Positions 47,235-48,655 of a stretch of DNA of 64,000 bases are shown here, one piece after another; position 1 is the stretch's first letter, and every line of letters starts with the position of its first letter. The DNA is from Candidatus Dormiibacterota bacterium (GTDB lineage Bacteria; Chloroflexota; Dormibacteria; Aeolococcales; Aeolococcaceae), in the NCBI GenBank assembly GCA_036561525.1, contig DATBPD010000100.1:2164-66163 (forward strand). Reading direction: 5' to 3'. The position numbers and the translations under genes were made by a program. The notes under the pieces are model-generated. The model worked only from the letters and a program-made list of their open reading frames with translations, ran no database searches and was not told the DNA's origin.

Positions 47235-48407
47235 GTGCGGGTCATCCTCTATACCGGCAAGGGAGGCGTCGGCAAGACGACGGTCGCCGCGGCCACCGCG
47301 GTGGCCTGCGCCAAGCTTGGCCATCGCACCCTGATCATCTCCACGGACGCCGCCCATTCGCTCGGTGACTCATTCGACCTCGAGCTCGGTGATCACCCCA
47401 CCAACATCGCTCCCAACCTCGACGCCCAGGAGATCAACGCCCTCCATGAGATGGAGGAGCACTGGGAGCGCGTCCACAGCTATCTCATCTCTCTGTTCGC
47501 CTCGTGGGGCGTCGACGACTTCGTCGCCGAGGAGATGGCCACGCCACCGGGGATGGAAGAGGTGGCCAGCCTGATGTGGATCAAGCGCCATAAGGAGCAG
47601 GGTGTCTACGACGTGGTCATCGTCGACTGCGCGCCCACCGGCGAGACCCTGCAGCTGCTCGCCTTCCCCGACGTGGCGCGCTGGTACCTCACCAAGATCT
47701 TCCCAGTCGAGCGCAAGGTCTGGAAGGTTGCCCGGCCGATGGTGCAGCCGTTCACCAACATCCCTCTGCCCACCGACGACATCTTCGGCCACATCAAGGA
47801 CCTGCTCTTCGACCTCGACGGCATGAAGAACATCCTCGGCGATCCCAGGACATGCACTGTGCGGCTGGTGCTCAACCTCGAGAAGATGGTGGTCAAGGAG
47901 GCGCAGCGTGCCTTCACGTACCTCTGCCTCTACGACTATCTGACCGACCTCGTGGTGGTCAATCGGATCCTCCCCGACGAGGTCACCGACGAATACTTCG
48001 CCGCTTGGCACCGCTCCCAGAAGAAGTACGACGCGCTCGTGGAGACCGCCTTCTCACCCGTGCCCATCCGCCGCACCCCGCTGTTCGACCACGAGATCGT
48101 CGGGCTCGACACCCTTGCCGAGATGGCGGAGGCGATCTACGGTGACACCGACCCGACCCAGCGATTCCACACCACGGTCTCGCAGCATCTCAAGAAGGTC
48201 GGGGCCAACTACGAGCTGCAGCTGCAGCTGCCCTTTGTCGACAAGGACGAGGTGGACATCACTCACCGCCCCGGTGAGCTTTTCGTCAGCGTCGGTCCGT
48301 ACAAACGCGAGATCAGCCTGCCACGAGTGCTCAACGGCACCCGGGTGATCAGGGGCAAGCTCGATGAGGGGATGCTGCGGGTCACGTTCGCAGGGGCGGC
48401 CCGGTGA
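47235..48407 (+). CDS. ArsA/Get3-family ATPase with C-terminal alpha-crystallin/HSP20-like domain
   Basis: GKGGVGKTT, STDAAHSLGD, DCAPTGETL; single ATPase domain; C-terminal YELQLQLPF...ELFVSVGPYKREISLP...LRVTF. Confidence 0.9.
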   Translation: MRVILYTGKGGVGKTTVAAATAVACAKLGHRTLIISTDAAHSLGDSFDLELGDHPTNIAPNLDAQEINALHEMEEHWERVHSYLISLFASWGVDDFVAEEMATPPGMEEVASLMWIKRHKEQGVYDVVIVDCAPTGETLQLLAFPDVARWYLTKIFPVERKVWKVARPMVQPFTNIPLPTDDIFGHIKDLLFDLDGMKNILGDPRTCTVRLVLNLEKMVVKEAQRAFTYLCLYDYLTDLVVVNRILPDEVTDEYFAAWHRSQKKYDALVETAFSPVPIRRTPLFDHEIVGLDTLAEMAEAIYGDTDPTQRFHTTVSQHLKKVGANYELQLQLPFVDKDEVDITHRPGELFVSVGPYKREISLPRVLNGTRVIRGKLDEGMLRVTFAGAAR

Positions 48408-48655
48408 GCGAGCCGTTCGCTGTCGACCCCGGCAAGCTCGTCGCGGACGTCATGCAGCTGCTTGCCAACGCAGTCGAAGAGTTCGTCCCCCCCGACGCGC
48501 AGATGCACCTGCTCAACGCGCAGCGCGAGCTGCTTCTGGCCCTCGCGGTGATCATCGAGCACAACAGCACGCGCACGCCGCGCCAGCCACGCGGCCGACG
48601 CCGGCGCGCTGCGGCGACAACGACCAGGCGCCCCAAGCGCGTCGAGCTGGATTGA
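48404..48655 (+). CDS. Small hypothetical ArsA-associated protein (83 aa)
   Basis: GTGA-coupled to the ATPase; helix EAQMHLLNAQRELLLAL-like, basic linker, ends KRVELD. Confidence 0.7.
   Translation: MSEPFAVDPGKLVADVMQLLANAVEEFVPPDAQMHLLNAQRELLLALAVIIEHNSTRTPRQPRGRRRRAAATTTRRPKRVELD

Follow-up and report, generated by a model that had tools for sequence, protein, structure and literature searches.

The DNA analyzed here is a stretch of 64,000 nucleotides (the window) from contig DATBPD010000100.1 of a Candidatus Dormiibacterota bacterium, class Dormibacteria, phylum Chloroflexota. On its forward strand lies a pair of genes in which a Get3d-like ("Group 6") ATPase of 390 amino acids (positions 47235 to 48407) is followed, with a short overlap, by a protein of only 83 amino acids (48404 to 48655), whose C-terminal tail is the main subject of this study. 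The ATPase has an intact GKGGVGKT P-loop. A Pfam scan assigned its residues 1 to 302 to ArsA_ATPase (PF02374; E value, 5.8e-91) and its residues 324 to 385 (48204 to 48389) to ArsA_HSP20 (PF17886; E value, 1.9e-18), and structural alignment of a modeled homologous domain likewise identified the latter segment as an alpha-crystallin domain (aCD). In the NCBIfam scan, the protein matched TIGR00345 (GET3_arsA_TRC40) with 266 bits against a cut-off of 135. The score with the NosAFP equivalog model NF050088 was 134 bits, under the cut-off of 325, so the ATPase has the Get3d architecture but is not an equivalog of the Nostoc Get3d. No CxxC zinc motif was found in the translated ATPase sequence. A Foldseek search with a 55%-identical ATPase (locus L022) as proxy returned the archaeal Get3/TRC40 structures 3zq6 and 3ug7 first, followed by the Nostoc Get3d (8egk/3igf) and the Arabidopsis Get3d (8elf); a phmmer comparison with 3igf gave an E value of 0.008. 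The protein combines a single ArsA/Get3 P-loop ATPase domain with a C-terminal aCD, that is, the Get3d or Group 6 architecture.

The small gene starts within the last codons of the ATPase gene. Its GTG start codon at 48404 and the ATPase stop codon TGA at 48405 to 48407 share the sequence GTGA (48404 to 48407, forward strand), and a -4 overlap of this kind recurs in five other lineages (loci L130, L131, L139, L146, and L147). Because the 4-nucleotide GTGA overlap is recurrent, also in distant relatives, the ATPase and the small protein are translationally coupled. The encoded protein begins with helix 1 (residues 9 to 26; 48428 to 48481), which is amphipathic, with a hydrophobic moment of 0.49, and shows little sequence conservation; AlphaFold2 models have a helix in the corresponding region of a homolog. 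Next comes the core helix (residues 28 to 54; 48485 to 48565), with the sequence VPPDAQMHLLNAQRELLLALAVIIEHN. It includes H35, A39, and E42, which are invariant in a 53-sequence alignment (A1), and in the shorter AlphaFold2 model of a homolog this segment was helical, with a predicted local distance difference test (pLDDT) score of 82 to 86. A flexible linker (48566 to 48631) was delimited from the alignments and from pLDDT values below 60 in the models; residues 55 to 78, a run of 24, contain 10 Arg or Lys and no acidic residue. The tail, P-K-R-V-E-L-D (48632 to 48652), was defined by motif conservation and by comparison with small heat shock proteins (sHSPs); the protein as a whole ends in RRPKRVELD.

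The small protein has no membrane segment and no cysteine. A Pfam scan gave no HSP20 match that would indicate an alpha-crystallin domain in it, and a comparison with the local Pfam and NCBIfam models returned no family at an E value of ≤0.1, the known Get3 partners (Get1/2, Get4/5, and Sgt2) included. The precomputed annotation of the window protein and of nearly all its homologs does assign a family, PF27253.1, which carries the name AF_1253 in the Atlas; the assignment comes from that annotation, and the local Pfam copy apparently lacks the model. AF_1253 clusters are also listed in the Atlas for Bacillota. At the protein level there are 111 close and 62 distant relatives, and hundreds of homologs, with identities as low as 30%, retain both core and tail. 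The open reading frame at 48404 to 48655 is a real gene.

Two further observations concern the anatomy of the family. A CxxCP motif stands just before helix 1 in 15 of 190 members (among them P0028, P0076, P0082, P0094, P0095, P0102, P0105, P0112, P0114, P0124, P0158, and P0168); it might let two copies of the protein bind one metal ion jointly, and it is absent from the window protein. Separately, MAFFT repeatedly placed the VPPEAQxHLLNAQRELL core of the small protein (residues 27 to 50) on a helix of the ATPase at residues ~243 to 270, RV(I/L)PPE…W…Q..Y. In eukaryotic Get3, this region carries the CxxC helix. We treated the alignment as an artifact.

The position of the small gene next to the ATPase gene is nearly fixed. 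In a species-level collection, each of the 80 Dormibacteria loci has, immediately upstream and in the same orientation, an ATPase that aligns through its full aCD, and such an ATPase precedes the small gene directly in 24 of the 29 Chloroflexota loci that were fetched. The small protein was present in 57 of 201 sampled genomes of the phylum, every one of which also has PF17886, and by coordinates the two genes adjoin in at least 40 of the 57. The window genome has one aCD ATPase and one gene for the small protein. A search for longer homologs found no fused ATPase-partner proteins; loci L025 and L026 looked like fusions in a stop-to-stop scan, but their genes lie in separate frames. Some of the genomes are unpublished. 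One of these (G173) contributed a same-genus locus (L004) and the TetR tails at L201 and L208 discussed below, while G038 and G145 entered only the PF17886 tallies, and the main conclusions are independent of the unpublished genomes.

Of 57 representatives of 50%-identity clusters of the family, 53 carry I or V at position -4 from the C terminus, 54 carry L, I, or V at -2, 48 carry D or E at -1, and 46 carry R or K at -5. The residue between the two hydrophobic positions, at -3, is free (E, P, S, D, T, K, A, or R). The family consensus is accordingly [RK]-[VI]-x-[LIV]-[DE]-COOH. All but a few of the 111 close relatives end in RRP-x-RV-x-LD, and the tail is retained in 79 of 80 species-level genome loci, in all nine loci of family f4, and in all 22 further members recovered by profile search. 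Apart from the helical core, no part of the protein is more constant than the tail. The pattern [RK][VI].[LIV][DE] stands at the C terminus of just 4 of the 20,147 open frames of ≥70 amino acids in the window genome, the small protein among them. This rarity, together with the near-universal retention in the family, indicates that the tail is not a chance feature. Members of the window family have an Arg-rich linker in front of it, those of f4 an acidic one (…GGGGAEALRIEIE), and other lineages a neutral one; the linker measures ~10 to 50 residues. A linker that varies in length and charge, while the Phi-x-Phi end stays constant, fits a tether carrying a docking peptide.

An earlier note on this DNA, made from the letters alone, had described an 83-residue protein coupled to the ATPase, with an amphipathic helix, a basic linker, and a C-terminal KRVELD, and had proposed checking whether the terminal motif is conserved. 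The overlap and synteny bear out the coupling, helix 1 is amphipathic, the terminus is as described, and the motif is kept across the family, the opposite of what would have refuted the proposal of the note. The basic linker is a true description of the window protein, but with an acidic counterpart in f4 it is not a functional family feature, and we view the segment as a tether instead.

The hydrophobic-x-hydrophobic ending resembles a known element of sHSPs, in which an IX(I/V) motif, such as IEI in IbpA, drives assembly (bioRxiv 10.1101/2020.04.20.050740). We compared both the presumed target and the tail with the sHSP counterparts. Searched by VIA-align, a modeled homologous aCD matched 3igf (Z score, 10.9), 8elf (10.3), the alpha-crystallin domain (ACD) of the sHSP AgsA, 4zj9 (9.0), and Sso Hsp20.1, 4rzk (8.3), and in the model the ATPase domain has a true ACD fold. 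The window aCD also keeps the sHSP beta8-beta9 signature, as A/G-K-L-D-E-G-x-L-x-V-x-F; across the aCD and sHSP sequences compared, the signature reads A-K-[LFM]-[DE]-x-G-x-L-x-[VI]-x-F. The ATPase ends five residues past the last strand of the aCD, and it lacks both a C-terminal extension and an IxI motif. The sHSPs encoded by Dormibacteria do have such tails, among them …AHPKRVPVTV, …AQPKKVEVKV, …KPEPRRIPIK, …AQPLRIPIG, …NPRIRIEV, and …PAPIRIQID. Their pattern, P-[KR]-[RK]-[IV]-x-[IV], is the same as that in the small-protein family, where RRPKRVELD, RPRRIPID, and RVGKIPIE are examples. Judged from these sequences, the tail of the small protein is of the same type as the local sHSP tails, including the upstream proline and two basic residues. 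It has a Phi-x-Phi motif whose middle residue is free, placed at the tip of a flexible extension (coil; pLDDT, <60), in an sHSP-like context. The small protein has no ACD in the same chain, as an sHSP would, and it is best classified by its sequence as a protein with an sHSP-like tail, not as an sHSP. In at least 10 of 31 genomes of the class (G119, G173, G004, G155, G041, G053, and others), no HSP20 gene was found although the small protein is present; these HSP20-less genomes are 88 to 98% complete, and the aCD of the ATPase is the sole ACD seen in them.

A natural replacement in one genus, g17, bears on the same question. In its four genomes, the AF_1253 homolog is encoded away from the ATPase and ends in …DGETL. 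Directly downstream of the ATPase, at loci L033, L035, and L036, there is instead an unrelated protein of ~95 amino acids (MEGLFSILGFSIG…), which ends in …P-x-R-R-I-E-V-A-x-E. The N terminus of this RRIEV protein is Gly/Ala-rich and hydrophobic (MEGLFSILGFSIGASIG…), and its family is restricted to g17. The sequences point to a natural swap, with the RRIEV protein in the place of the AF_1253-type partner, and as such support docking on the aCD.

On this evidence, we propose that the small protein is a dedicated, co-made partner of the Get3d-like ATPase, with its tail docking on the aCD and its helical hairpin acting on the ATPase, a reading to which we give roughly even chances. The two proteins would be made together in stoichiometric amounts. 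The C-terminal …RRPKRVELD would supply an sHSP-type I/V-x-I/V motif in trans, which would settle, as a short strand, into the hydrophobic beta4/beta8 edge groove of an aCD that has no tail of its own. The docked tail would then tether the conserved, polar-faced helical hairpin (VPPEAQxHLLNAQRELL…) beside the ATPase dimer. Get3d is a two-fold dimer with two aCDs, and its crystal structures place the aCD, which touches both monomers, on the surface by which cytosolic Get3 binds Get4 (PMC10248533). Since the aCD occupies the Get4 site in those structures, the hairpin may be expected near the dimer interface. In that position it could be an adaptor for the ATPase cycle, or regulate it, influencing the nucleotide state or the hand-over of a client, for example, of the tail-anchored protein encoded upstream. 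Both the binding of the tail in the beta4/beta8 groove and the action of the hairpin on the ATPase are steps that we infer.

Several results weigh against this proposal. Co-occurrence alone is weak, as PF17886 is present in 176 of the 201 phylum genomes; because the domain is near-ubiquitous, the adjacency of the genes is the evidence, not their co-occurrence. One genome (G176) keeps the tail, as RVEID, although its small gene is not adjacent to an ATPase gene. Mutual information between the tail and the ATPase, underpowered at an effective sequence number of 22, had no clear aCD signal, with 9 of the top 30 columns in the aCD against ~6 expected. Structure prediction likewise did not dock the tail. 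As a proxy for the complex we used locus L022 (G053:C13, family f4), where only one TGA separates the ATPase from an in-frame partner and could be read through with translation table 4; in eight sister f4 loci the partner is in a different frame from the ATPase, and the in-frame arrangement at L022 is probably accidental. A read-through of L019 was dropped, its aCD being frameshifted. MAFFT misplaced the short partner rows in alignments A3, A5, A6, and A8, which left A7 and A10 as the only ones clean enough to fold. In the AlphaFold2 model of the aCD plus partner (A7, 40 rows), the aCD had a pLDDT above 90 and the partner helices were formed, with the tail as coil at a pLDDT of ~50. In the full-length model (A10), the ATPase and the aCD were confident and the whole partner had a pLDDT of 30 to 55.

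The models give no support for docking, and we regard them as a weak negative. The calculation used a single chain for a would-be 2:2 complex, and the partner alignment was shallow. The model was moreover trained on single chains, whereas the docking of sHSP tails occurs between chains. The affinity of isolated IxI peptides is only 5 to 25 µM or weaker (PMC6212398), which also makes an undocked tail less telling. Set against the conservation of the motif, its match to sHSP tails, and its linkage to an aCD ATPase, these results leave the interpretation of the earlier note partly supported: V-E-L varies in the family as an sHSP IxI motif does, while groove binding is deduced and was not reproduced in the AlphaFold2 proxies.

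The most serious alternative is that the small protein is a true partner of the ATPase whose tail binds elsewhere, on another ATPase surface, on free sHSPs, or on a third protein, the likeness to IxI tails being convergent or otherwise shared. Synteny and coupling speak for the partnership and not for the aCD groove as the site, and neither AlphaFold2 model put the tail there. CS and ACD domains, furthermore, bind partner peptides in several ways, as in the structure entries for Pih1-Tah1 and HspB7-filamin. Nonetheless, the match to the local sHSP tails extends to the upstream proline and the two basic residues, at least 10 genomes have no other ACD protein that we could find, and the aCD of the ATPase comes without a tail, all of which favor the aCD as the target. 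We consider it unlikely that the tail binds elsewhere.

A second possibility is that the small protein is an assembly clamp, dimerizing through its helices, in some lineages by way of a CxxCP-bound metal, so that its two tails bridge both aCDs of one ATPase dimer or cross-link dimers, in the way that sHSP tails build oligomers; it would then not be a regulator. The CxxCP-bearing minority (15/190), the two-fold ATPase dimer with its two aCDs (PMC10248533), and the IxI-driven oligomerization of sHSPs (10.1101/2020.04.20.050740) are all compatible with it. The window protein, however, has no cysteine, and we obtained no evidence of dimerization. Such a clamp is quite unlikely in our view, and it would be a variant of the proposed docking partner, not a contradiction of it.

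The small protein might instead be a client, with a helix in the Get3 chamber, or a membrane- or nucleic acid-associated factor, with the Arg-rich linker on anionic lipid, RNA, or DNA, and with the tail serving as a sorting or turnover signal. Helix 2 does contain LLLALAVII, the 24-residue linker of the window protein has 10 basic residues, and Get3d binds tail-anchored helices (PMC10248533). The hydrophobic run is only 9 to 10 residues long, however, and in other lineages it is amphipathic and charged (LLAARAVLDH and LLALRSLLDE). The linker is acidic in f4, so that its basicity is not conserved, and the most conserved residues of the family are polar (H, N, Q, R, and E), as is typical of a specific protein interface. 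A client or lipid- or nucleic acid-binding role is therefore very unlikely. Finally, long open frames abound in GC-rich DNA, but that the small gene is one of these by chance can be dismissed, given the core and tail kept in hundreds of homologs, the fixed position and coupling, and the existence of a Pfam family.

Besides the RRIEV protein, there are other proteins in these genomes with comparable ends. A TetR-family regulator of the window genome (G000:C10:2-586, L199) ends in …RRGRATRVVVD. In G173 (L201 and L208), its ortholog ends in …AMRVVLD and a 39%-identical paralog in …SRRPRRIALD; TetR homologs in other families lack such a tail. By sequence, these tails could be due to chance, or they could mark a second protein that plugs into the aCD.

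A broader reading, which we hold tentatively and think somewhat doubtful, is that the aCD of Get3d-type ATPases is a socket for proteins with sHSP-like tails. The AF_1253 protein would be the dedicated partner of this ATPase class, the RRIEV protein and perhaps the TetR regulators would also plug in, and the Get3d proteins of cyanobacteria and chloroplasts might be used in the same manner. If so, the ATPase would be connected both to adaptors and to regulators of its own.

The genes around the pair were also inspected. The ATPase start codon is 5 nucleotides after the stop of an upstream gene (46796 to 47229, forward strand) encoding a 144-amino-acid tail-anchored protein with a basic, low-complexity N terminus and one C-terminal membrane helix (…DLRRVAIIAGLMIVLIIVADIIVSNVVK). 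In 44 of 93 loci, chiefly from the family of the window, the ATPase is immediately preceded by a conserved open reading frame ending in AIPFDRVPYVPxDLRRV followed by a transmembrane domain; in other Dormibacteria families, another gene, whose product is not a membrane protein, takes this place. The tail-anchored neighbor thus occurs in only some lineages of the class, in contrast to the small partner, which is constant. Judged by gene position, which is circumstantial, this protein is a plausible candidate client of the ATPase. The next gene after the small gene, at about 48700 to 49197 on the forward strand, encodes a NUDIX hydrolase (PF00293; E value, 4.8e-17). Elsewhere in the genome, at G000:C79:16774-18605 on the reverse strand, two adjoining genes encode ArsA-like ATPases without an aCD, in a BagA/BagB-like arrangement. 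A genome search found a single small-protein gene of the A1 family, the one on contig C100, with no second copy, including at the aCD-less ArsA pair.

A different small open reading frame was observed in genomes of family f14, which have six to eight ArsA-aCD paralogs. One of these paralogs, ~40% identical, is followed ~70 to 115 nucleotides after its stop codon by an open reading frame of 80 to 82 amino acids with the sequence MATRGWFSES…QGHWQWVSNALQ…RPKRIRSRFNR (loci L121, L122, L125, L127, L128, L134, L135, L137, L138, L140, L141, L143, and L145). Its product presumably resembles the precursor of CsmA, the chlorosome baseplate protein of filamentous anoxygenic phototrophs. If it is CsmA, a client link between Get3d-type ATPases and photosynthetic membranes would be possible.

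The ATPase class itself is already known, and AF_1253 (PF27253), the family of the window protein, is an uncharacterized Pfam entry with no function assigned. We found no paper describing the pairing of the ATPase with the small protein or the tail, and a literature search for AF_1253 gave only unrelated matches. Get3 homologs with an aCD are present in many phyla of bacteria and archaea and also in chloroplasts, and the papers on Group 6 and Get3d state that neither the function of the aCD nor the partners with which the ATPase works are known (PMC10248533, PMC6593721). A co-encoded, coupled small protein bearing such a tail provides a specific hypothesis for that function, with the aCD as a socket for a tail supplied in trans, and if this is true, the small protein would be the first prokaryotic Get3 cofactor.

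Among known systems, the closest relatives of the ATPase in architecture are the Get3d proteins (Nostoc All4481, 3igf/8egk; Arabidopsis At1g26090, 8elf; Group 6), which have the same Get3 fold, the same C-terminal aCD, and no CxxC, and for which no partner has been described. Unlike the Nostoc Get3d, to which it is ~22% identical, the Dormibacteria ATPase keeps a canonical P-loop and is nearer to archaeal Get3/TRC40 (30%) in sequence and fold. In the GET pathway, Get4/Get5 and Get1/Get2 (WRB/CAML) likewise bring small helical elements to the Get3 dimer and control the ATPase and client transfer. The Pfam and NCBIfam comparisons showed no sequence relationship of the small protein to them; it has no membrane segment, and tethering through an ACD tail has no counterpart in that pathway. 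The tail itself is most like the C-terminal extension of sHSPs, such as IEI in E. coli IbpA and the Dormibacteria examples, in that a Phi-x-Phi motif with a free middle residue, preceded by proline and basic residues, ends a flexible segment and has an alpha-crystallin fold as its presumed target. In contrast to sHSPs, the motif here is on a separate 83-residue chain, at the very C terminus and followed by one acidic residue, and the ACD is fused to a Get3-type ATPase. The beta4-beta8 groove of the HSPB proteins binds the IPV motifs of BAG3 in trans (PMC6212398), and BAG3 thus offers the nearest functional parallel, a non-sHSP co-chaperone that supplies an IxI-type motif in trans and links an ACD protein to an ATP-driven chaperone. 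BAG3 differs in being eukaryotic, large, and nonhomologous, with internal motifs and with a free sHSP as its ACD partner, not a domain of the ATPase. If the proposed docking is correct, the Dormibacteria pair would give the BAG3-HSPB principle, the connection of an ACD to an ATP-driven chaperone by an IxI motif, a counterpart in prokaryotes.

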